DNA from: a virus
Reading direction: 5' to 3' (one strand)
Length of the DNA stretch: 24,893 nt
IMG/VR virus record: IMGVR_UViG_2974665388_000001
Location: 1 to 24,893 of that record
This document shows, piece by piece, positions 4,606 through 24,577 of the stretch. The notes under the pieces were generated by a model, which saw nothing but the letters and a program-made list of their open reading frames with translations, was not told the DNA's origin and searched no databases. A program made the translations under genes and the position numbers. The stretch's first letter is position 1, and every line of letters starts with the position of its first letter.

Positions 4606-5829
4606 TTGAATCATGTCTTTAGTATTAGTGGTGGGGATGTGTTTATAGTTCCATCTAGCTATGAAGTAGCATTTGTAACTCTCAACCCTGAATATACTGT
4701 AGCACTTGCCCTCTACCTCGACGTGAAGGTCGAGGGAACACCATTCCCCGTGAAGATTAGTAATGAGATAGTGCTAGAGCCGGGAGAGGTGGAGGTTAGG
4801 GAGAAGGCTGGGGTAGTAGAGGTTGTAGTAGCAGGAAGGAAGTACAGTGGTGCTCTGGCAAATCCAGAAGAGATACTGATGCCAGCGAAATTTGAAACAG
4901 TAGACATGCTCACAATTAGAGTTGATGTTGATGTGTTGAGGCTCATGAGGGACGTTAATACTGTAGCTTTATCGCTTGATGAGGATGTAGGCCTTGCTGA
5001 AGGAGACAACTGGGCTGTCATCGAGTTTGACAAGGATGGCAAGTTTGAGGCCGAGGCAGTGTTTCACGGTCGCTGGATAAGGCAGGCAGTACCTCCGAGC
5101 GTGTTTAGGGCGAGGAAGGATACAGTAACTATGAGGATTGCAAGGGATAGGCCTGTTATAGTTGAGGGTTATACTAGAGCTGGGCAACGGTTTGTTGCTG
5201 CAATAGGGCAATCTGTCGAGTCCCCAGGAATCCCATCAAGGTTCATATATCTTGAGCCAGAGTACATGAGGCCTAGTGAGCTCCTAGGCGTGCTTGAACT
5301 TGCATTTGATGTGGTGCTAGACTATTATAGCATATATGGAGTATTTACGCATTATGATTTCTTCAGTATAGGGCTCTCTAAAGGGGCTTCAGGAAGGTAC
5401 AGGTTGAGGCATAGCTTGCATGTGCCCAGGCCTATTAAGAGGGCAGTTGATATTGCAGGGGGGCTTCAAGCAGCACCGAGAGACGGTGTTTTAGACGTTA
5501 ATGGAGCCTTGCTAGAAGAGGTTGAGGAGCTACCTCGGGACATAGCAGAGGCAAAGGCTAGAGTAGAGGAGTATCAAATAGTTGAGGTATTCAACGTTAG
5601 AACGAAAGTGGATAGAGCTGAAATCAGGGATGGGGAGTTAATACTGTACAAGGGGAGGAGCGAGGTTCTAAGGATAAGCGTGCCTATATCAGGGGACTTT
5701 AGATTCGATAGCGAGCTGATACGGTACTTCACTCCAGGGGGGATAACGTTGATGGAGAGGGATGGGGAAGTTGCGTTGAGGTTTGAGAAGAGCTATAACA
5801 CATGGCTATTCGTGGAGGGGGTGAGATAA
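4606..5829 (+). CDS. Putative divergent sliding-clamp (PCNA-fold) protein with two fused PCNA-like units
   Basis: By-eye motifs: VAFVTLNPEYTVALALYL (PCNA AMDPSRVALIDL-like), KDTVTMRIARDRPVIVEGY (PCNA C-terminal strands), second unit ending GDFRFDSELIRYF...EVALRFEKSYNTWLFVEG. Coding is certain; the function is inferred. Confidence 0.55.
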   Translation: MNHVFSISGGDVFIVPSSYEVAFVTLNPEYTVALALYLDVKVEGTPFPVKISNEIVLEPGEVEVREKAGVVEVVVAGRKYSGALANPEEILMPAKFETVDMLTIRVDVDVLRLMRDVNTVALSLDEDVGLAEGDNWAVIEFDKDGKFEAEAVFHGRWIRQAVPPSVFRARKDTVTMRIARDRPVIVEGYTRAGQRFVAAIGQSVESPGIPSRFIYLEPEYMRPSELLGVLELAFDVVLDYYSIYGVFTHYDFFSIGLSKGASGRYRLRHSLHVPRPIKRAVDIAGGLQAAPRDGVLDVNGALLEEVEELPRDIAEAKARVEEYQIVEVFNVRTKVDRAEIRDGELILYKGRSEVLRISVPISGDFRFDSELIRYFTPGGITLMERDGEVALRFEKSYNTWLFVEGVR

Positions 5830-7508: not shown

Positions 7509-7764
7509 ACAAATCATAAAGAAATGGTGGAGCTATGTTGGGAGGAATCCCCTGAAGAACTTGAGGAAGAGGCTTATACTGTGGTATGTTACCCTTGTTT
7601 TTTTGATATTAGCCGATGAATACGTTAAGGAGGGCTATATCCTGAGGCCTCGGGACTTCCTTATTCCATTTACGCATGAAAACCTTCTTCTCGTTTTAAC
7701 CCTAGCTTTTATAATTGCTTACTGGAAGCTCCTGGGTGGGAGGGATGATAGGGATAATAGCTGA
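7483..7764 (+). CDS. Small two-TM membrane protein (start uncertain)
   Basis: Two hydrophobic segments flanking DEYVKEGY...FTHE. Confidence 0.65.
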   Translation: MGSSSHFLKQIIKKWWSYVGRNPLKNLRKRLILWYVTLVFLILADEYVKEGYILRPRDFLIPFTHENLLLVLTLAFIIAYWKLLGGRDDRDNS

Positions 7765-8749
7765 TACTTGGGGGATTTCGTTTAGGAGGGTGGCTTTCCT
7801 CACTGAGATGGGTCTTAGAAGGATTGGCTATGTTTCTAGGGTCTATGAGGTTAGGTCTCCAACGATATTATGGGGGTCTTTTGCGAGGATTATAATCGTG
7901 GGGGATACGGCTCTCCTCCTTAAGATGGGTTCACACGAGGTGTGGGCACCTTATTCAGAGCAGAGGGTTTGGTGGGCAGACACCCCCCTTGAGTATGGCT
8001 CGATTGTTACTAGGAGGATGGTTGATTTTCTCAATGCAAATTATAGGGTTGCAGCGGTAAGCGAGTACAACGCTAGGCAGTATAGGGAGCTGGGTGTTAA
8101 GGTTCACGGACTAATACCGAGGCCTGTTGATATCGGGGCAATAGCTAGGGCTGACAGGACCGTTTGGAGGAGGAAGTTTGGAGGAGAGTATATCTTAACG
8201 ATAGGGAGCGATACGATATTGTTAAGAGACAGATATCCAAGGAAGGGGCTTGACATATGCGATGCTGCCATAGGGCTAATTAAGGGAGAGCTTAAGAAGA
8301 GGGGGATAAGGACGGTTGCAGTTACTAACTGGAACATGATGAACTTCGATTACGTGCTACAGGCTGGTAGTCTATCAGATGAGGAGATATACTCCTTAAT
8401 AGTCGGGGCCAAACTGTTTATCTGGTGTAGCAGAAGAGAAGGATTCGGAATGCCACCCCTTGAGGCTATGGCTGCTGGGGTTCCGATTGTCTACTCGGAC
8501 GCTCCAGCACACAACGAGTTCCTTGTTGGCTATAAGGTGCCTCCAAGAGCTGAGCTCGAAGTAACACATAGGGAATCGGGGCTTCCAATGATTGTTTACG
8601 ACTTCTCAGCTAAACACTTCGCTGATACAATCCTTTATGCTCTAGAGGATATTGAGAATGACATGCATCTTGCCTATGTCGAGGAGGGTCTTGAGAGAGC
8701 GAAATACTTTGACGTTAGAAACGTTGCACAAATGTTAATTGAAATATAG
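7745..8749 (+). CDS. GT-B fold glycosyltransferase, family 4-like
   Basis: RKG motif and EGFGMPPLEAMAAGVP signature; ATG 7745 after SD GGTGGGAGGG (track start 7715). Confidence 0.9.
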   Translation: MIGIIADTWGISFRRVAFLTEMGLRRIGYVSRVYEVRSPTILWGSFARIIIVGDTALLLKMGSHEVWAPYSEQRVWWADTPLEYGSIVTRRMVDFLNANYRVAAVSEYNARQYRELGVKVHGLIPRPVDIGAIARADRTVWRRKFGGEYILTIGSDTILLRDRYPRKGLDICDAAIGLIKGELKKRGIRTVAVTNWNMMNFDYVLQAGSLSDEEIYSLIVGAKLFIWCSRREGFGMPPLEAMAAGVPIVYSDAPAHNEFLVGYKVPPRAELEVTHRESGLPMIVYDFSAKHFADTILYALEDIENDMHLAYVEEGLERAKYFDVRNVAQMLIEI

Positions 8750-12412: not shown

Positions 12413-13459
12413 GTGATGGTGAAGACGGTAAAGGTTCCGGATGAGCTCTATGAGAAGCTAAAGGAGATGGCAGACTCCCAGGGCAAGGCAATACATGAGG
12501 TAATCTCAGGCCTCCTGGAGAGGATAGAGGTTGGGGAGGTTCAAATCAAGCTCCCAAAGCCAAAATTCATACCATTGAGGTATCCTGCATATTGTGTGTT
12601 AGGGAACCATAAGATTGACCCTGAGGAATACAGGAAGAATACTGGAAGAATACCATATGCTCTTTGGTTCCCAGAGCTAGGTGGAGTAATATGCATTGAT
12701 TGTTTGATAAAAGAGGTATTCACAAAGGAGGAGCAAGCGAAGGTTTTGACAAAACTTGAAGTAGAGATTAGGAAGCTTAGAGCAATCAAGAGACAGCTTA
12801 ACAAGGAAGTAGAGGAGCTTGCAATGCAGTATAGCGTTGCAGAGATATTTGCAAGGCTAGACTCGATTATTAATGAGATAAACGAAGCACTGAAGCTTGT
12901 AAGGAGCCTCGAAGACTATATTTGGTGTAAGGAGGAGGAGTGTGAGGAGAAGAAGAAGGTTGTTCTTGAGGCTATGGAGAAGATTGATGGCATAAAAGAG
13001 CAACTAGAAAAGCTGGAGCTACCCGAGAGTTGGGCTAAGAAGCTGATAAAGAAGGCTGCTTCAGAGTCATATACATCAACATCATATAGCAGCTACAGGA
13101 GGAGAAGGTGGGGGTCGATGGGATGGAAGCGGTTGAAAGAAAGAGCTATCAAGTCGAGGGTTATCAAAACGACGCATCGCCTTGTAGACGGCTCTTTGAA
13201 AGAGTACCAGCGAATCAACTACTACTTCCAGATGTACTTCTCGATTCCAGAGTGGTGGTTGAAAGAGGAGACGAAGCGTTACGAGATACTGCAAGTAGAG
13301 AAGGCGAGAAGCTTCTTAGTGCTACCCCAGGATATTACTCTGGAGGAGTTGGAGTCGTTGAGGAGAGAGATATCGAGCCTGATAAGAAAGGCGAGGAGAG
13401 GCAAACAGATATTTGCGACCAATGCGAGGAAGCGAAAAGAATCTGCAAGGGGAGGATGA
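12413..13459 (+). CDS. Multidomain protein: N-terminal RHH, C/H-C-x2-C zinc finger, coiled coil, basic C-terminal domain
   Basis: KTVKVPDELYEKLKEMADSQGKAIHEVI (RHH); YCVLGNH...ICIDC; long heptad region. Confidence 0.8.
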   Translation: MMVKTVKVPDELYEKLKEMADSQGKAIHEVISGLLERIEVGEVQIKLPKPKFIPLRYPAYCVLGNHKIDPEEYRKNTGRIPYALWFPELGGVICIDCLIKEVFTKEEQAKVLTKLEVEIRKLRAIKRQLNKEVEELAMQYSVAEIFARLDSIINEINEALKLVRSLEDYIWCKEEECEEKKKVVLEAMEKIDGIKEQLEKLELPESWAKKLIKKAASESYTSTSYSSYRRRRWGSMGWKRLKERAIKSRVIKTTHRLVDGSLKEYQRINYYFQMYFSIPEWWLKEETKRYEILQVEKARSFLVLPQDITLEELESLRREISSLIRKARRGKQIFATNARKRKESARGG

Positions 13460-13519
13460 AGCTAACGAGATTTTGCCTTGATGCTAAGGAGTATTGCATT
13501 GCGGTTGGGTGTGGATGGG

Positions 13520-13741
13520 ATGAAGGTTAGGGACTTCTGGAGGAGATACCTCGAAGCAGACGACGTTGAGAGGCTTGACTTGATTAAGGGGTTGCTAGAG
13601 AGGCATATCCACGCATGCTATACAATATACAAGGATAATAGAGTTCTTGGAGTTCATTGTCTAGTATCAATTGTGAACTCGTTTTTCCTTGATTTGATTA
13701 GGGTGCTCGGGGAGGAGAGAGATGGGCTGCGTGAGGAGTAG
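13520..13741 (+). CDS. Hypothetical protein
   Basis: ATG 13520 after GGTGTGGATGGG (track start 13478). Confidence 0.65.
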   Translation: MKVRDFWRRYLEADDVERLDLIKGLLERHIHACYTIYKDNRVLGVHCLVSIVNSFFLDLIRVLGEERDGLREE

Positions 13742-15451: not shown

Positions 15452-15487
15452 GTTATGCCCCTTCAAGATTTTTAGTGGTGAGACCAT

Positions 15488-15709
15488 ATGGAGCTTGTTG
15501 ATGAAATCAGATGGTTGAGGGAGGCTTTGCAGGACCTCGAAGACAGGGTTATTAATTGGGTGTCAAGACCCAGGGTTTACACGAGTCTCAGGGAAGCGTT
15601 TGAGCACACTGCAACCGATATTATGCTTGCTAGGACGCTTTTGGATATAGCAGCTTACAGGGAGGAGCTAGCACGGATAGAGAGGGTGGTGAAGGATGCA
15701 TGGGGTTGA
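15488..15709 (+). CDS. Hypothetical helical protein, 73 aa
   Basis: Promoter and SD upstream. Confidence 0.75.
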   Translation: MELVDEIRWLREALQDLEDRVINWVSRPRVYTSLREAFEHTATDIMLARTLLDIAAYREELARIERVVKDAWG

Positions 15710-16235: not shown

Positions 16236-16516
16236 TGAGCATCGAGGAGCTGAGGAGTATTGATGTTGAATGCATATTCAGGCTAATAGAGGAGTATGCA
16301 TCTTACCTCCCAGAGGGAACGAGGAGCGTAATACTTGAGAACTTGAGGAACAAGAGGATAGCGGATGCTAAGGCCTTCGTTGAAGGCATATTGGGGGAGA
16401 AAATAGAACCAGAGAGGCTTGTGAAGGATAACAGTTTAAAACCAGTCTTAGTTTTAGCTTTACATCGGTGCGGGAAGGGTGGGCAGGCTCCTAGTAAGGC
16501 ACTCCAGGGCATTTAG
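16235..16516 (+). CDS. Hypothetical protein, 93 aa
   Basis: TAATG coupling, natural composition. Confidence 0.7.
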   Translation: MSIEELRSIDVECIFRLIEEYASYLPEGTRSVILENLRNKRIADAKAFVEGILGEKIEPERLVKDNSLKPVLVLALHRCGKGGQAPSKALQGI

Positions 16517-17435
16517 CCTGACAAAAAAGGCTAGAGAGATTGCAAGCATACTTGGTGGGATTCTTTTAGGGCCCAATGATAACATTATAGTTGACTATCC
16601 AGCGGTTGCCCTTTATGTGCTTACGGCTAACAATCTAGACCTCGGTTTAGTTGCTTCCACGTATTTTCAGGCTAGAAGGAATATTTTCTATGCTATAGCT
16701 GAGGGAAGACCTAAGCTTCATTGGCTGGCTAGGGAGATGCTCGATAATTCAATTGTTATTGCTCCTTCTGAGTACTCTGCAAGCAAGATTAGCGAAGCGG
16801 GCATACATGTAGAGCGTGTTATCCATTTTGCAGTTACCCCTCCAAAGGTTGACTATGATTACGCTATTAGTCTGAGGCAAAAGTTCCAGGGGAAAAAGCT
16901 GGTCGTATGGGTGGGGGCTAACATGTATCGGAAGGGTGTTGATTTGATTGAGGATGCAGCGGAAACACTCGGTAACGATTATGCGGTTTACGTTGTAACT
17001 GGGCCTGGAGACTATAACATTAACGATATTAAAGCGAAGAACGTTCATGTTGACGACAGAGTGTTTAGGCTCCCCGAGGATAAGCTGGGGGCATTATATT
17101 ATGCAGCGGACGCACTCCTAATGACGACGAGGAACGAGGGGTTTGGGCTACCCTCTATAGAGGCTACACTAATAGGGACACCAGCAGTCATACCTGAACA
17201 CCCGGTGCTTCAAGAGGTCTTGGGAGACTGTGGGTTCTTTTACGAGGTGAGGAGGGTTAGGATTGAGGATTTCTTCGGCTTGATGGATATGGAATATTAC
17301 GAGCCAGATATCTCAACCCTGCCTGAAGCGATGGAGAGGGCTCTTAGGGAGGGGGTTTTAACTAGGTGTATTAGCGTCCTTAGTAAGAGGTTTGGCCCAG
17401 ATAATTACAAGGCGTTTCTTAGGTACTTGATTTAG
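16479..17435 (+). CDS. GT-B fold glycosyltransferase, family 4-like
   Basis: WVGANMYRKG and RNEGFGLPSIEATLIGTP signatures. Confidence 0.9.
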   Translation: MGRLLVRHSRAFSLTKKAREIASILGGILLGPNDNIIVDYPAVALYVLTANNLDLGLVASTYFQARRNIFYAIAEGRPKLHWLAREMLDNSIVIAPSEYSASKISEAGIHVERVIHFAVTPPKVDYDYAISLRQKFQGKKLVVWVGANMYRKGVDLIEDAAETLGNDYAVYVVTGPGDYNINDIKAKNVHVDDRVFRLPEDKLGALYYAADALLMTTRNEGFGLPSIEATLIGTPAVIPEHPVLQEVLGDCGFFYEVRRVRIEDFFGLMDMEYYEPDISTLPEAMERALREGVLTRCISVLSKRFGPDNYKAFLRYLI

Positions 17436-17440
17436 GAGGG

Positions 17441-18613
17441 GTGAGAGGCGTGAGAGTTCTGATAACAGGTGTAACTGGGTTCAAGGGCTCTTATCTTGCG
17501 AAGAGGCTCGTTGAGGAGGGATGGAGGGTTTTCGGGCTGGTCAGGGGGAGAAGCGATAACCACAGATTCGTAAGGCTTAGACTACTGGGGATTCTCGATA
17601 ACGTGGAGCTTGTTGATGGGGACATGACAGACCCTGTGAGCTTGCAGAGAGCGATAGCTAAGACCCAGCCGGACGTGATATTTCACCTTGCGGCTCAATC
17701 TTTCGTTGGAAGGAGTTTCGAGGCTCCGCTGGAAACATTTAACATTAACGCTTACGGGACGGTAGCCCTACTTGAGGCTGCAAGAGCTCATGTACCAGAC
17801 TCTAAGATAATCGTTGCAGGTAGCAGTGAGGAGTATGGTAAACAGTTCATATCGGAGATGCAGTGGGAGAGGAGCGGGAAGCCGGGTCCAGAGCCTAAAA
17901 GGCTCCCCGAGCTCCCGATTCGTGAAGACAACCCGCTTAGACCTGTTAGCCCATATGCTTTGAGTAAGGTTGTTGAGGACTTTGCTTGCCAGGCCTATGC
18001 TAGGATGTATAACATGGATTGTACAGTTCTCAGGGTCTTCAATACTGAGGGCCCTCTCAGGGGAGAGGTCTTCGTTACGGCATCAATAGTGAAGCAGCTT
18101 GTAGCAGTCAAGAACGGCTTGAGAAAATATGTCGAGCTAGGCAACGTTGCAGCTATGAGGGACTGGTCTCATATCGAGGACACCATTGAGGCTTATTATA
18201 ACGCTACAAAGGTGAGAGGAGGCGTTTACAACGTTGGTAGCGGGAGGATTAACAGTGTGCTCTACTTCCTTGTTAGAGCGTTTAACGCTGTGTTTAATGA
18301 TGAGGCAGAACTCGTTAGGATAGAGGATAGGAACGTTATTACACTGTTCCCAGAGGAGGTTGACGAGATGATTTTGAGTTACATGAAGGAAGGTGTTGAA
18401 CCATTCAAGCCAGGCATGAGGATATCTGTGATAGGCAAGAGACATAGTGTTGATGTGGTTCTTAGCAGAGAGAGGTTCAGGCCTGCTGACGTTCCTCTGC
18501 TACAAGCTGACTATTCAAGGTTTGCACAAGCTACTGGATGGAAGCCTATGAGGAGCCTAGACGACATCATAGAGGACCTTGTAAGCTTCTATACTGGAAG
18601 GTGGAAGCCTTGA
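17441..18613 (+). CDS. gmd: GDP-mannose 4,6-dehydratase-like extended SDR
   Basis: VLITGVTGFKGSYLA, HLAAQSFVGRSF, SSEEYG, SPYALSK (YxxxK), FNTEGPLRGEVFVT, RDWSH, RPADV. Confidence 0.9.
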   Translation: MRGVRVLITGVTGFKGSYLAKRLVEEGWRVFGLVRGRSDNHRFVRLRLLGILDNVELVDGDMTDPVSLQRAIAKTQPDVIFHLAAQSFVGRSFEAPLETFNINAYGTVALLEAARAHVPDSKIIVAGSSEEYGKQFISEMQWERSGKPGPEPKRLPELPIREDNPLRPVSPYALSKVVEDFACQAYARMYNMDCTVLRVFNTEGPLRGEVFVTASIVKQLVAVKNGLRKYVELGNVAAMRDWSHIEDTIEAYYNATKVRGGVYNVGSGRINSVLYFLVRAFNAVFNDEAELVRIEDRNVITLFPEEVDEMILSYMKEGVEPFKPGMRISVIGKRHSVDVVLSRERFRPADVPLLQADYSRFAQATGWKPMRSLDDIIEDLVSFYTGRWKP

Positions 18614-19269
18614 AGGCCCTCCAACGGATGGAGAAAGTGGTGGAACAGGCCAAGAAATGGGCTAGCAAGGGAGACGGAATCATTAGCGGTAGTGTTGCAG
18701 CATGGCTACAGGGAATTAAATTGCAGCTTCGAGACGCAGACATAATTGTTAAGAAGATGCCTAGCATTAAGGAAGTGGAGATAGTGAAGGCCGAGAGGGT
18801 TGTTTACGGGAGCACTATAAACGACGTTGTTGCATTCATTGATGATGGGGTTGGTGTGGAACTAGTTGCTAATCCAGTTGTGTACAGGTACCTTGCTGAG
18901 AGAGGTGTTGTGGTTGATGGGCTGAAGGTTGTGTCGTTGAGTGAAGTATTTGCAATGAAGCTGGCAAAGCTTGCAATAAGCCTTGGAGCCAGTAAAGCAG
19001 ATATTATCTGGCATCAAGTGCCAAAGACGGTATCAGACTTACTGTTGCTTTACGATGAAGGCGTTGTTGATTTTGCCCGTGTAAGAGATTTCATCGAGAC
19101 GTTTGGGTTCAGGGACGCTATTGCATTGCTAAGATACAGCCATATTGCTCTTGAAGTGCAGATGTCGTTTACTCTAGCATCATACTATCTTGGAATATAC
19201 GATTACGAGGAGGTTATGGAGATTTATCGAAGCATGATGAGGGAGACGTTGGAGGTGCTCGGGGTATGA
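18610..19269 (+). CDS. Pol-beta-superfamily nucleotidyltransferase 1 (AbiEii/MenT-like)
   Basis: IISGSVAAWLQG...RDADI, VELV, VVSLSEVFAMKL; TTG 18610 overlaps the gmd stop (TTGA), SD GGTGGA (track start 18538). Confidence 0.7.
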   Translation: MKALQRMEKVVEQAKKWASKGDGIISGSVAAWLQGIKLQLRDADIIVKKMPSIKEVEIVKAERVVYGSTINDVVAFIDDGVGVELVANPVVYRYLAERGVVVDGLKVVSLSEVFAMKLAKLAISLGASKADIIWHQVPKTVSDLLLLYDEGVVDFARVRDFIETFGFRDAIALLRYSHIALEVQMSFTLASYYLGIYDYEEVMEIYRSMMRETLEVLGV

Positions 19270-19865
19270 GGTTAAGGGCTTACACGTTAGAAGACCTAGC
19301 TAGAGTCTATAAAAAGGTAGATGCGAAGTTCAAAGTCGTTGTTGGGGATATTGTGGCCTGCATCTATGGATATCCTTGCTTGGCTAAAGACATTGACTTA
19401 GTTATGCCGCTTGAGCTAGCTGGGAGGCTCAAGAACCTGCCAGGCGTGAAACTCGGAGAAGGCAAGGTTGTTGAAACAGAGATTGACGGCATAAACGTTA
19501 GCTTCAACCTTGAGCCCATGTTCAGGCTTAAGCTATTCTACATGCCTTTTATTGAGGTATCAAGGATTAACGGGGTAGAGGTTGCTCATTACTCTCTGGA
19601 AAGGTATGTTGCTGGACGGCTGAAAAGGCTAATAATAATGCTAAGGAACGGGAAGGAGAATATCTATCTCATACCTTATCAGTTGATGGACTTGGTGCCA
19701 ATCCTGTGTGATAAGAGAGAGATACTATTGGGGGCTAGGCGTATTCTTGAGAGGAGGTTTGACATGGATTATAACGAGTTGTTGCGGATGAATAGGGACA
19801 TTATTGATGCTGCAAACAATATGAGTAGAGACATATTCGGAGTTGCTTGCAGATGGTCGTGGTGA
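19266..19865 (+). CDS. Pol-beta-superfamily nucleotidyltransferase 2
   Basis: VVVGDIVACIYG...KDIDLV, YSLERYVAGRLKRL; ATGA coupling. Confidence 0.65.
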   Translation: MRLRAYTLEDLARVYKKVDAKFKVVVGDIVACIYGYPCLAKDIDLVMPLELAGRLKNLPGVKLGEGKVVETEIDGINVSFNLEPMFRLKLFYMPFIEVSRINGVEVAHYSLERYVAGRLKRLIIMLRNGKENIYLIPYQLMDLVPILCDKREILLGARRILERRFDMDYNELLRMNRDIIDAANNMSRDIFGVACRWSW

Positions 19866-19868
19866 ATC

Positions 19869-20537
19869 GTGGTGGTATGGATAAGGGATAGGTGTTGCTT
19901 GAGGGCATTAAGCCTTGCAGAAGCCGTTTTAAAGGAGAGTACAGCGTTCCCTGCTGGGAGCCTTTTGCTCCTCAAGGGTGGTGTTCAGACTTACTTTAGG
20001 GATATTGATATTATGAGTACTGTTGAGGATTACGAGAGGAATGCTGAAGTTTTCAATAGAATCCTGAGTGAATGCACAGTCTTGAAGCATAGATGGCTTG
20101 CTAGGAGCTGTTTTGGTTGCCCTGTCGAGCTTATACCCGTCCCGAGCTTCCTAAAGGAAGAATACGAGAGGAGGGGCCCAGTAGAGTTTTGGCTTGGAAC
20201 TAACATTGCGAAACTTACACGTTGGAAGCACGAGTTCACGGCTGCAAAGTTCCTAGCAAAACTTTTTGTCGTGTTGTCCCAGGTGGATGATATTAGCATT
20301 GAAGATGTTAGGGAGCACTTAGAGGTTCAGAGGAAAGTTGGTTACATGCGGGGTAAGATTCAGATTAAAAAGAGCACGTTTACTCCTGCATATTATCTTT
20401 ACAGATACATCTATATTAGCGATGATACGAGGTTTGTTGAAGCAGCTTATGAGCACGAGTTAGGCGTATTCTCATCAAGGCTTATTGCATTTTTTGAGAG
20501 GCTTCGCTCACACGGAATACCCGTTGAAATCCTTTAG
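19869..20537 (+). CDS. Pol-beta-superfamily nucleotidyltransferase 3
   Basis: FPAGSLLLLKGG...RDIDIM, PVELI, AAKFLAKL. Confidence 0.65.
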   Translation: MVVWIRDRCCLRALSLAEAVLKESTAFPAGSLLLLKGGVQTYFRDIDIMSTVEDYERNAEVFNRILSECTVLKHRWLARSCFGCPVELIPVPSFLKEEYERRGPVEFWLGTNIAKLTRWKHEFTAAKFLAKLFVVLSQVDDISIEDVREHLEVQRKVGYMRGKIQIKKSTFTPAYYLYRYIYISDDTRFVEAAYEHELGVFSSRLIAFFERLRSHGIPVEIL

Positions 20538-20550
20538 AAACCTTTATTAT
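20538..20550 (+). promoter_or_regulatory. BRE-TATA-like promoter AAACCTTTATTAT
   Basis: Intergenic, about 36 nt upstream of ATG 20586. Confidence 0.6.
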
Positions 20551-20585: not shown

Positions 20586-20828
20586 ATGGACCCGGAGCTG
20601 AAACCCATTATTCGGCTTATCCTTCTAAGGCTCGTGGAAGAGCCCGGGGCAAGAATGAAATATAGAAAGCTTTACAGATATGTTCAAGAGCACGCAAAGA
20701 AATTCGGGGTATCCCCAACTGAAGCCATTTACGCAGCAGCCAACCTAGACCTTATTGTTATTGAGGGAGACGAGGTAAGGCTGACAGAGAAGGGGGAGAA
20801 AGAAACATTTATAATAATGGGATGGTAG
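20586..20828 (+). CDS. Winged-helix protein, 80 aa
   Basis: Helices followed by the wing LIVIEGDEVRLTEKG. Confidence 0.8.
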   Translation: MDPELKPIIRLILLRLVEEPGARMKYRKLYRYVQEHAKKFGVSPTEAIYAAANLDLIVIEGDEVRLTEKGEKETFIIMGW

Positions 20829-22120: not shown

Positions 22121-22456
22121 ATGGTTAAGGTCTATGCCATTGACAGGGATGGAACTCTTGAGACTGGAGAGCCTCCAGGTCCTCTCAAGATATGCCAAGT
22201 CCTCAAGCTCCTCAAGCAAGGACACATCCTCTACTCCTATGGAAATTACAAGCTGATTGAGGAGCTGCCCATTCCCTATGCCCCAGGGAGGGACAAATGG
22301 CAGAGGCTCAAGTGGATAATGGAGAGGCATCCTGATGCAGAGGAGTACATCTATATTGATGATGTGGACCAAAAGATGCCTGGATGGAAGTGGCTTAAAC
22401 CCGAGGAGGCAGCAAGGATGATAGGACCGTGCCCCCATGAGGAGAGGGCCCTATGA
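22121..22456 (+). CDS. Minimal capless HAD-superfamily phosphatase
   Basis: Motif I AIDRDGTL (DxDGT), motif IV YIDD, Lys in RDKWQRL as candidate motif III. Confidence 0.75.
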   Translation: MVKVYAIDRDGTLETGEPPGPLKICQVLKLLKQGHILYSYGNYKLIEELPIPYAPGRDKWQRLKWIMERHPDAEEYIYIDDVDQKMPGWKWLKPEEAARMIGPCPHEERAL

Positions 22457-24136: not shown

Positions 24137-24398
24137 AGAGCTAAAACAGAGAATTATGAAGGTCTTGCAGAACGGGAGCAAGACTCTTGTCGAGGTTCAT
24201 TTTTTAGTTGAGAAGACTGGCTTCGTTGTTTCTTACAGGCGTCTCAAGCTGGTTGTTGACGAGATGGTTCAATCTGGGCTTATAGAAAAAATGAGGGACG
24301 GAAAAAAGGTAAAGTATAAGATAAAAGAAGGGCAGCATAAGATATGGCTCGAATACCCCTGGAGAGGTGAGGAAGAGTGGGCAAGTATGCGACTCTAA
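24093..24398 (+). CDS. ArsR-like winged-helix protein
   Basis: RIMKVLQNGSKTLVEV...LVVDEMVQSGLIEKMRDGKKVKYKI. Confidence 0.8.
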   Translation: MGLKLEPAVTAASDEELKQRIMKVLQNGSKTLVEVHFLVEKTGFVVSYRRLKLVVDEMVQSGLIEKMRDGKKVKYKIKEGQHKIWLEYPWRGEEEWASMRL

Positions 24399-24577
24399 CA
24401 CAGGACCTTCCCGAGGAGTACAGGAAGGCTCACCCCATATGTGTGGCTAGTAAAGTGGCCAAAATGGGCTACGAGCCTGCAAGGGCTCCTAGGGACGTGA
24501 GGCAGAGAGCAGCCGAGGAGTGTATAAGGGAGGGCAAGCTGCACGGCATAGTGAAGCTGCTAAGCCCCTCGGTTTGA
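24377..24577 (+). CDS. 66-aa His/Cys protein, stand-alone paralog of the N-terminal domain of 3741-4526
   Basis: TQDLPEEYRKAHPICV...AAEECIREGKLHGIVKL aligns with TADLPYPYKYAHWLCV...AARQCLAEGKTIGIVNL. Confidence 0.8.
   Translation: MGKYATLTQDLPEEYRKAHPICVASKVAKMGYEPARAPRDVRQRAAEECIREGKLHGIVKLLSPSV

Follow-up and report, generated by a model that had tools for sequence, protein, structure and literature searches.

Three diverged paralogues with a MenT/AbiEii-type nucleotidyltransferase fold encoded beside glycosyltransferase and gmd genes in a 24.9-kb viral genome

The window, that is, the whole 24,893-nt stretch of DNA analysed here, carries three consecutive genes directly behind two sugar genes, and the question is what the three proteins are and on what they act. 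This stretch is, almost beyond doubt, the whole genome of Aeropyrum coil-shaped virus (ACV, Spiraviridae). To our knowledge, no other member of the Spiraviridae has been classified and no other spiravirus is known, and the genome of ACV is the largest known of an ssDNA virus. Hardly any of its 57 ORFs has an annotation. The genes concerned are the following.

16479..17435, plus strand: GT, glycosyltransferase (GT4 / Glycos_transf_1) that opens the tight block; Pfam Glycos_transf_1, E 1.8e-11.
17441..18613, plus strand: gmd, GDP-mannose 4,6-dehydratase-like SDR; Pfam GDP_Man_Dehyd, E 2.9e-76.
18610..19269, plus strand: NT1, MenT/AbiEii-fold nucleotidyltransferase, predicted active; G27-S28, D42, D44, E84, K117, D131.
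19266..19865, plus strand: NT2, diverged paralogue, probably catalytically impaired; G27-D28, D42, D44, with S79 at the third-acid position and R118 for Lys.
19869..20537, plus strand: NT3, paralogue, predicted active; G30-S31, D45, D47, E87, K127, D140/D141.
20586..20828, plus strand: wHTH-like gene of 80 aa, neighbour of the NT module; weak AAA_assoc_C match, E 0.0099.
22121..22456, plus strand: ORF111, tied to the NT family via a domain fusion in the relative L004.

The gmd gene, whose product shows the catalytic residues S-E and YxxxK in its sequence, starts 5 nt past the end of GT. Its stop codon (TGA, 18611-18613) and the NT1 start codon, TTG at 18610, share bases (TTGA), and so do the stop codon of NT1 (TGA, 19267-19269) and the ATG of NT2 at 19266 (ATGA). 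NT3 starts either at GTG 19869, after a 3-nt gap from the end of NT2 at 19865, or at the alternative GTG 19872; its database record is the 221-aa form. This coupling reads as the preliminary description of the locus had claimed, and GT belongs to the same tight block. GGTG-type Shine-Dalgarno motifs were found upstream of all three NT starts (3/3). Since the ACV genome is 93.5%-coding and single-strand (PMC7416610), the overlap of NT1 with gmd is a weak sign of a common pathway. Overlapping genes are a general rule in this genome.

The G[SD] and D-x-D elements that had been reported for each of the three ORFs were confirmed, with an identical x13 spacing: G27-S28-x13-D42-A-D44 in NT1, G27-D28-x13-D42-I-D44 in NT2, and G30-S31-x13-D45-I-D47 in NT3. 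A strict form of the motif, defined post hoc as G[SD]-x12-[RK]-D-[AI]-D-[ILVM], had exactly three matches among six-frame ORFs of at least 60 aa in the genome, one in each NT, and none in shuffled sequences (0/300). The Pol-beta motif hG[GS]-x9-13-DhD, as quoted in PMC3985639, reads GS-x13-DAD in NT1, GD-x13-DID in NT2 and GS-x13-DID in NT3, Asp replacing the second G/S in NT2. Furthermore, the third acid proposed for copies 1 and 3, and said to be absent from copy 2, was confirmed: 'VEL' provides E84 in NT1 and, as placed by alignment, E87 in NT3, whereas NT2 has S79 at the position aligned by hhalign. E84 lies on strand 81-87 of the NT1 model, and E or D occupies its position in 4/4 members of the NT1 family. 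The proposed K/R helix was also present in all three copies, its Lys/Arg being K117 in NT1, R118 in NT2 and K127 in NT3. By sequence spacing alone, this residue is followed by D131 in NT1 (+14) and D140/D141 in NT3 (+13/+14); in NT2, R118 goes with E131. Among the NT1-family members, at 23-56% identity, G-S, D-x-D, E/D and K-L are invariant, which is the pattern expected for catalysis. The NT2 orthologue of L004 (35-39% identity) keeps G-D, 'NVSFNLEP', the Ser corresponding to S79, and R118. Because the same substitutions are conserved in this orthologue, NT2 seems to be a selected, probably non-catalytic or altered partner.

Direct comparison of the three proteins by BLASTP was marginal (E 0.11 and 0.29, and no match for the third pair). 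When family profiles were compared, the NT1 family matched the NT2 family over 118 columns (hhalign 71%, E 3.8e-5). The NT1-family HMM scored NT2 above 2000/2000 shuffles of NT2 and NT3 above 1998/2000 shuffles of NT3, whereas the controls, wHTH and GT, showed no standout score against their shuffles. The NT3-NT1 alignment was colinear over the whole length. In addition, the NT1 model retrieved NT2 (J7QC75) at rank 2 (E 7.5e-6) and NT3 (J7Q212) at rank 3 (E 2.9e-4, TM 0.56) among the viral BFVD models. Profiles, shuffles and model matches thus bear out the mutual homology on which the proposed triplet depended.

The AF2 model of NT1 had a pLDDT of 90.1, and an independent ESM Atlas model (pTM 0.85) had the same structural neighbours. 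The closest solved structures were MenT3/TglT, MenT1, MenT4 and JHP933 of the AbiEii/DUF1814 group. The alpha/beta core superposed on solved nucleotidyltransferases for NT1, for NT2 via its ESM Atlas and BFVD models, and for NT3 via the BFVD model only (TM 0.56); the bi-lobed form with a C-terminal helical lobe, like that of MenT3 and MenT4, was present. For NT3 the fold is based on that BFVD model and weak sequence statistics, a single-sequence AF2 model having a pLDDT of 34. The ESM Atlas comparison placed NT2 near the DUF6036/DUF2204/AbiEii clusters (cosine 0.97, TM 0.62-0.67).

The sequence databases gave a different picture. No Pfam model detected NT1, NT2 or NT3, and PF08843 gave none at E <= 1 by hmmscan; a six-frame genome search with PF08843, PF19502 and PF09970 yielded no match at E <= 10. 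The NT1 homologue P0002 matched PF08843 at E 0.098 only, and another, P0005, had a sub-threshold DUF6036 match (E 0.011). PHROGs, NCBIfam and PADLOC provided no usable match for NT1-3. Accordingly, the AbiEii/MenT-like assignment held for the fold and was not supported for family membership by sequence. The triplet is also less new than had been supposed: UniProt already names NT1 (J7Q329) 'Nucleotidyltransferase', and lists NT2 and NT3 as uncharacterised. What is gained is a fold-level identity for these two ORFs, while NT1 now appears to have two paralogues, one of the three copies being degenerate, and the predicted catalytic residues of the set are specified. Taken together, these findings suggest that a single lineage-restricted nucleotidyltransferase family of the Pol-beta superfamily, with the two-lobed MenT/AbiEii (DUF1814-like) architecture, is present in ACV as three paralogues, NT1-3, which are old and have diverged strongly. 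We are highly confident that the three share a fold and are paralogous, that their sets of catalytic residues are as listed, and that they are packed tightly and co-linearly with GT and gmd.

MenT3/TglT (Rv1045), MenT1 (Rv0078A) and MenT4 (Rv2826c) of M. tuberculosis and AbiEii of S. agalactiae (DUF1814, PF08843) share 8-20% identity with the ACV NTs. The motif I-II spacing of DUF1814 proteins is x15, with an Arg four residues before the first Asp, whereas that of the ACV NTs is x13, with Arg/Lys directly before it (PMC3985639). The DUF1814 +DxxD pentad is absent from the ACV proteins, and the KLxAaxxR and +DxxD consensus is not literally reproduced in NT1-3 (PMC3985639). The MenT catalytic positions, taken from PMC10435456 and PMC7450476, include a family-specific Lys of motif III (K137 in MenT1, K189 in MenT3) and an Asp 15-22 residues later (D152 and D211, respectively). 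In MenT enzymes, the residue two positions ahead of the first catalytic Asp is a phospho-acceptor Ser/Thr (MenT1 T39, MenT3 S78, MenT4 S67; PMC10435456); it is missing from the ACV proteins, where the position is L40 (NT1), A40 (NT2) or F43 (NT3). MenT surfaces are electropositive (PMC7450476), whereas the NT1-lineage proteins are acidic (pI 5.4-6.1); NT2 (pI 9.0) and NT3 (pI 8.2) are basic. MenT/AbiEii genes follow an AbiEi/MenA antitoxin gene, whereas the ACV NT genes are viral, in triplicate, and behind GT and gmd.

Other likenesses were more limited. JHP933 of H. pylori (PDB 4O8S, 4OK0), at 13-15% identity, is a single-copy bacterial plasticity-zone gene. The archaeal ESM Atlas clusters DUF6036 (PF19502), DUF2204 (PF09970) and 'Aminoglyc_resit' were nearest to NT1/NT2 (features 0.96-0.97, TM 0.62-0.71); their members are mostly archaeal and, like the NTs, about 200 aa long, but the ACV proteins reach none of their Pfam models. 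TM1012 of Thermotoga maritima (PDB 2EWR, 2FCL, 4HX0) was found by sequence with the NT1-family profile (E 1.2e-4) and covers the N-terminal lobe only, because it has 160 aa. ANT(2'')-Ia and LnuA, resistance enzymes without a link to GT/GMD genes, were more distant than the MenT group, and because these enzymes are shorter, the C-terminal lobe is matched only in part. The related ANT(2'')/Lnu enzymes nucleotidylate sugar hydroxyls.

Word-indexed homologue searches returned one relative for NT1 and none for NT2 or NT3, and an exhaustive HMMER search with the NT1 profile against 1.84 billion representatives returned P0002 and P0005 only. IMG/VR scans with NT1, NT3 and gmd gave no match, nor did a metagenome scan with NT3, which had no detectable homologue in any collection searched. 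A metagenome scan with the gmd alignment yielded only cellular GMDs of about 37% identity, with no NT-like ORF adjoining them. GenBank/INPHARED phages, a collection that may omit ACV's own record, were not matched by DNA, NT1, the integrase or ORF 4606-5829. Only three related elements are known, ACV and the metagenomic L001 and L004, the last being contig JOHN19-1 scaffold_704; these relatives open comparative analysis of ACV, apparently for the first time in the literature consulted.

The gmd of ACV is 67% identical to the L001 copy and 55% to that of L004, and the GT proteins of ACV and L004 share 45% identity. The order GT-gmd-NT1-NT2-NT3 of ACV, with its TTGA and ATGA overlaps, becomes gmd-(ATGA)-NT1-41 aa-NT2 in L001. 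In L004, an NT2-like gene lies 10 nt after GT and some 2.5 kb upstream of the closest NT1-like gene, while gmd overlaps a gene whose 332-aa product contains a dead NT-like domain; this gene in turn overlaps an active-looking NT1-like gene. NT-like genes thus adjoin a gmd-like or GT gene in both relatives. The conservation of this neighbourhood may partly reflect inheritance rather than selection, because the three elements share wider synteny (integrase ... GT ... gmd).

With G-S, D-x-D, the Glu of the strand, the Lys of the helix and an Asp 13-14 residues further on, NT1 and NT3 would bind NTP-Mg2+ and would then transfer NMP to a hydroxyl acceptor. NT2, in which Ser replaces the canonical third carboxylate and Arg the Lys, would accompany these active copies as a partner that is probably altered or non-catalytic. 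The acceptor, the least certain step, may be of the sugar type (sugar, sugar nucleotide or glycan) and linked to the GT/GMD module. We slightly favour such an acceptor over tRNA, because NT-like genes adjoin gmd/GT in all three related elements despite rearrangement. The acidic NT1 lineage, the lack of an antitoxin-type partner and the missing phospho-acceptor Ser/Thr agree with a sugar-type acceptor. Against it, tRNA 3' ends are the substrate of every one of the nearest relatives with a solved structure, ANT(2'') and LnuA being more distant, and the basic NT2 and NT3 suit nucleic-acid binding. As a whole, diverged paralogues with active NT1 and NT3, an altered partner NT2 and a slightly favoured sugar-type acceptor are the best explanation, which we put forward tentatively, at somewhat less than an even chance.

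A more specific proposal is that a MenT/AbiEii-fold family was recruited to a viral nucleotide-sugar or glycan pathway, in which active NTs, together with conserved dead paralogues (NT2 and the NT-ORF111 fusion of L004), would act on a product of GMD and GT (sugar, sugar nucleotide or glycan), activating it by nucleotidylation or otherwise. Classical sugar-1-phosphate nucleotidylyltransferases have another fold, and we know of no Pol-beta-fold enzyme in nucleotide-sugar biosynthesis. This proposal is rather unlikely; if true, the sugar or glycan role would be new for the MenT/AbiEii fold, and would be found in the only known spiravirus. Any functional link of the NTs to GMD/GT would mean new chemistry for this fold.

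The chief alternative is that NT1 and NT3 are MenT/AbiEii-like RNA enzymes extending the 3' CCA ends of host tRNAs, with NT2 as a pseudo-enzyme regulator or antidote. Translation might then be throttled or re-programmed, competing viruses excluded, or a chronically infected host made virus-dependent. All characterised members of the closest group (MenT1, MenT3 and MenT4) extend tRNA acceptor stems (PMC7450476, PMC10435456), the D, K and D catalytic residues of MenT have equivalents at similar spacing in NT1 and NT3, and NT2 and NT3 are basic. Several MenT paralogues with differing tRNA preferences also coexist in one genome (PMC10435456). However, no AbiEi, COG5340 or MenA-type antitoxin gene was found upstream of the NT genes, where gmd lies instead, and PADLOC gave no relevant match. 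The regulatory Ser/Thr is replaced as described above, the spacing is x13 against x15 for DUF1814 (PMC3985639), Pfam AbiEii is not matched, the NT1 lineage is acidic, and the conserved neighbours are sugar genes rather than regulators. We regard tRNA extension as somewhat unlikely. The ACV NTs would be a further case of a virus-encoded, MenT-shaped enzyme without toxin-antitoxin context, and since the characterised members of the fold group come from work on bacterial toxins, the roles of the fold may be wider.

Whatever the acceptor, NT1 and/or NT3 could depend on the degenerate NT2 as an obligatory subunit with a structural or regulatory role. The ATGA overlap of NT1 and NT2 and the conserved NT2-type substitutions are consistent with this, and the pairing of an active with a degenerate copy recurs, as NT1-NT2 in ACV and as the dead NT domain overlapping the active-looking NT1-like gene in L004. 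However, MenT1, MenT3 and MenT4 are monomeric in solution (PMC7450476, PMC10435456), the NT2-like gene of L004 lies by GT, far from the NT1-like gene, and gene overlap is the rule in ACV. Such a hetero-oligomer is unlikely.

ORF111 bears on a further alternative, in which the NTs would process nucleic-acid ends for the virus, by template-independent 3' addition to DNA or RNA, tRNA/RNA repair, or priming/tailing in ssDNA replication, perhaps with ORF111 as a cap-less HAD-type 3'-phosphatase. ORF111 matches the C-terminal 100 aa of the L004 protein 12588-13586 (BLASTP, E 3.7e-33), whose N-terminal 228 aa form an NT-like but degenerate domain (hhalign 86.6%, E 4.4e-6), and its motifs DRDGT, K59 and YIYIDD have a HAD-like appearance. 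Polynucleotide 3'-phosphatases carry similar DxDGT, K and DD motifs. ACV is also without a recognisable polymerase, primase or Rep (PMC7416610). However, Pfam, NCBIfam and PDB sequence searches gave no match supporting a HAD assignment, which we keep as a motif-level lead. Moreover, the fused NT domain is dead by sequence, R-x-E standing where D-x-D is expected, the likeness to Pol X and CCA enzymes is confined to the generic core, and there is no evidence of a DNA-binding module. We consider end processing very improbable. More remote still, and barely credible, is the idea that the NTs provide the nucleotide-adding activity that is otherwise missing when the 24.9-kb ssDNA genome replicates. 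That none of NT1-3 is an enzyme, all being NTase-fold scaffolds or ligand sensors kept for binding, is highly improbable: pseudo-NTases do occur in the lineage (L004 12588-13586 and NT2) and the activity of members is predicted only, but the catalytic set invariant in the NT1 family recurs in NT3.

The 80-aa wHTH product had been suggested as an AbiEi-like antitoxin, a role that we reject: it has a wHTH-sized body only, without the AbiEi C-terminal domain, its sole family match is the weak one to AAA_assoc_C, and no homologue was detectable next to the NT genes in L004. Its gene has a TATA-like TTTATTA at 20543-20549 and GGTG 7 nt ahead of the ATG.

The gene order given in the preliminary description, in which gmd runs into NT1 through TTGA, NT1 runs into NT2 through ATGA, and NT3 follows a 3-nt gap, was confirmed from the sequence. 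NT1, NT2, and NT3 are three neighbouring nucleotidyltransferase-like ORFs in the following block.

16479-17435, glycosyltransferase gene (GT), 5-nt gap to gmd
17441-18613, GDP-mannose 4,6-dehydratase-like gene (gmd), TTGA overlap with NT1
18610-19269, NT1, ATGA overlap with NT2
19266-19865, NT2, 3-nt gap to NT3 (6 nt with the alternative NT3 start)
19869-20537, NT3, alternative start GTG 19872, 48 nt to the next ORF
20586-20828, winged-helix (wHTH)-like ORF, 80 aa

The gmd product (GMD) is a homologue of GDP-mannose 4,6-dehydratase (E 2.9e-76). The viral protein has 390 aa, of which cellular homologues match ~315 aa. An insertion separates its two catalytic segments, S-E-E-Y-G and S-P-Y-A-L-S-K, and is also present in two related metagenomic contigs, L001 and L004. 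Downstream of gmd, genes for a GDP-fucose synthase, a reductase, or an aminotransferase were not found. A second GT4-type glycosyltransferase (Glycos_transf_1, E 1.2e-12) is encoded 8 kb upstream at 7715-8749, and has no NT-like neighbour.

When the NT1 model was compared with predicted viral structures using Foldseek, ranks 1-3 were occupied by three proteins of Alphaspiravirus yamagawaense, that is, Aeropyrum coil-shaped virus (ACV): J7Q329 ('Nucleotidyltransferase', 219 aa), J7QC75 (uncharacterised, 199 aa), and J7Q212 (uncharacterised, 221 aa). Judged from protein length and organism, these are NT1, NT2, and NT3. The ICTV profile describes ACV as a circular positive-sense ssDNA genome of 24,893 nt with 46.7% G+C and 57 ORFs (93.5% coding), all but one on one strand (PMC7416610). 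The window, a complete virus record of 24,893 bases, agrees with ACV in proteins, length, and G+C, and can almost certainly be identified as that virus's genome. The few annotated functions include proteins with a role in carbohydrate metabolism, and the profile states that related viruses are not known (PMC7416610). The two metagenomic relatives are new. L004 (1-20684 of a 40-kb contig, JOHN19-1 scaffold_704) has at least 14 ORFs in common with ACV (integrase 57% identity, gmd 55%, GT 45%, ORF 24377-24577 68%), and the 1.6-kb L001 (REYS20-1, 1-1630) is nearer to ACV (gmd 67%, NT1 54%).

The AlphaFold2 model of NT1 was confident (pLDDT 90.1, pTM 0.88, 7-sequence alignment), and an independent ESM Atlas model (pTM 0.85) had the same structural neighbours. 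The highest similarity score was obtained with TglT/MenT3 (14.6, rmsd 3.5 Å, 204/219 residues), followed by MenT1 (12.2), MenT4 and JHP933 (11.1 each), a Paracoccidioides NTase-like antigen (10.5), the C-terminal domain of the AbiEi antitoxin (9.4), TM1012 (9.2), ANT(2'')-Ia (8.9), LnuA (8.2), and generic Pol X and similar enzymes (6.9 and below). TM1012 was also found from sequence alone by the NT1-family profile (E 1.2e-4), in an alignment that pairs the G-S, D-x-D, and strand-acid positions. The ESM Atlas neighbours of NT2 were DUF6036, DUF2204, and AbiEii clusters (cosine 0.97, TM 0.62-0.67). Hence, the description of the triplet as AbiEii/MenT-like stands for structure, MenT3, MenT1, MenT4, and JHP933 being nearest to the NT1 model, but not for sequence, where PF08843, PF19502, and PF09970 give no match to any of the three. 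Moreover, DUF1814 proteins have x15 motif spacing and literal motif III/IV consensus forms (PMC3985639), whereas the triplet has x13 and reproduces neither. The fold and family are already known, and NT1 was previously named a nucleotidyltransferase; the recognition of NT2 and NT3 as its paralogues is new.

The mutual homology proposed for the triplet was supported by several comparisons. G-[SD]-x13-D-x-D is present with identical spacing in all three, and its strict form, a pattern set post hoc, was confined to these ORFs when every six-frame ORF of the genome was scanned, and occurred in 0/300 shuffles. Pairwise BLASTP matches were marginal yet colinear, and the signal became significant once relatives were added. 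The NT1 family (NT1, P0002 of L001, P0005 of L004, and L004 13583-14224; 23-56% identity) matched the NT2 family (NT2 and L004 6842-7510) in hhalign with 71% probability (E 3.8e-5, 118 columns). With the NT1-family HMM, NT2 outscored 2000/2000 shuffles and NT3 1998/2000, two proteins of this block used as controls had ordinary scores, and the top non-member matches in a 259-ORF local database were exactly the candidate paralogues. Furthermore, NT3 was colinear with NT1 (MAFFT) through the VEL strand, the V-R-x-x-[IL]-E helix, and the F-T-x-A-x-Y-[YL]-x-x-Y segment, and the BFVD (predicted viral structure) models of NT2 and NT3 matched the NT1 model better than any other viral protein did. NT3 is the least secure paralogue, since its single-sequence structure model was unsuccessful.

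Published MenT work describes the Pol-beta Asp (MenT1 D41, MenT3 D80), a Lys (K137, K189) and an Asp (D152, D211) that are specific to the family, and a regulatory Ser/Thr two residues ahead of the first Asp (T39, S78) (PMC10435456, PMC7450476). The residues of the three ACV proteins are as follows, the candidates for the family-specific Lys and Asp being placed by sequence spacing.

NT1: G27-S28; D42, D44; strand acid E84 (model strand 81-87); helix Lys K117; later acid D131 (+14)
NT2: G27-D28; D42, D44; S79 at the strand-acid position; R118 at the helix-Lys position; later acid E131
NT3: G30-S31; D45, D47; strand acid E87; helix Lys K127; later acid D140/D141 (+13/+14)

The candidate third acid noted earlier in copies 1 and 3, and lacking in copy 2, corresponds to E84 and E87 versus S79. 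Across the NT1 family, G, S, D, D, K, and L do not vary, and position 84 is occupied by E or D throughout. Because the L004 orthologue, 35-39% identical, keeps the NT2 pattern ('NVSFNLEP', R), NT2 is read as a divergent form under selection and not as a gene in decay. It is well supported that NT1 and NT3, predicted to be active, would perform NTP-Mg2+-dependent nucleotidyl transfer, NT2 being a paralogue that is either altered or non-catalytic. An enzyme-pseudoenzyme heteromer, a question orthogonal to the acceptor, is unlikely.

When 1.84 billion representative proteins were searched exhaustively with HMMER, P0002 and P0005 were the only two NT1 relatives to emerge. L001 has the order gmd-(ATGA)-NT1-41 aa-NT2 start; its 41-aa ORF (1399-1524) separates the homologues of NT1 and NT2, genes that in ACV overlap directly through ATGA. 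The L004 order is rearranged, yet each NT-like gene lies in or near sugar genes: the NT2-like gene is 10 nt after GT, P0005 is ~750 nt upstream of gmd, and gmd overlaps a 332-aa gene that overlaps an active-looking NT1-like gene. That NT-like genes stay with the GMD and GT genes in this way is new.

The acceptor is tentatively regarded as sugar- or glycan-linked, the leading reading. Three related elements all keep NT-like genes next to gmd or GT, translation of NT1 is coupled to that of gmd, and the NT1 lineage is acidic (pI 5.4-6.1). Two members of the clan, ANT(2'') and LnuA, transfer nucleotides to the hydroxyls of sugars, which also speaks for such an acceptor. Toxin-antitoxin features are all absent, which is a new finding: no AbiEi- or MenA-type antitoxin was found, the gene upstream of NT1 encoding GMD, and the Ser/Thr phospho-acceptor is absent from NT1 (L40), NT2 (A40), and NT3 (F43). 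The suggested antitoxin role of the downstream wHTH protein was not upheld; it has only 80 aa and no homologue in L004, and ACV encodes many small DNA-binding proteins (PMC7416610), so that such a neighbour is not specific. However, the sugar linkage may be over-read, because the related genomes number only three and have wider synteny in common, and the genome is so compact that gene overlaps are the norm. A tRNA or RNA acceptor, as in MenT, is less likely; in its favour, NT2 and NT3 are basic, and the characterised proteins of the structurally closest group all act on tRNA. Protein targets or no catalysis take the remaining weight, and nucleic-acid end repair or replication is very improbable. 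A sugar-type acceptor is slightly preferred. The NT assignments, with their predicted functions, are useful for this very poorly annotated virus.

In the 332-aa L004 protein (12588-13586), residues 1-228 form an NT-like domain (hhalign 86.6%, E 4.4e-6) that is probably catalytically dead, because R-x-E replaces D-x-D and Ser replaces the third acid. An active-looking copy beside a degenerate copy hence recurs in ACV and L004; this apparent pattern and its conservation, read from motifs, are new. Its C-terminal 100 residues share 48% identity with ACV ORF 22121-22456 (ORF111; E 3.7e-33), a fusion that connects the NT family with ORF111 and is also a new observation. ORF111 has conserved DRDGT, K59, and YIYIDD motifs reminiscent of cap-less HAD phosphatases; Pfam, NCBIfam, and PDB sequence searches gave no match supporting this assignment. 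L004 also encodes a homologue of the Cren7 chromatin protein (15480-15650, precomputed Pfam PF11520), which points either to a Cren7 carried by the virus or to integration of the element in a Thermoproteota genome.
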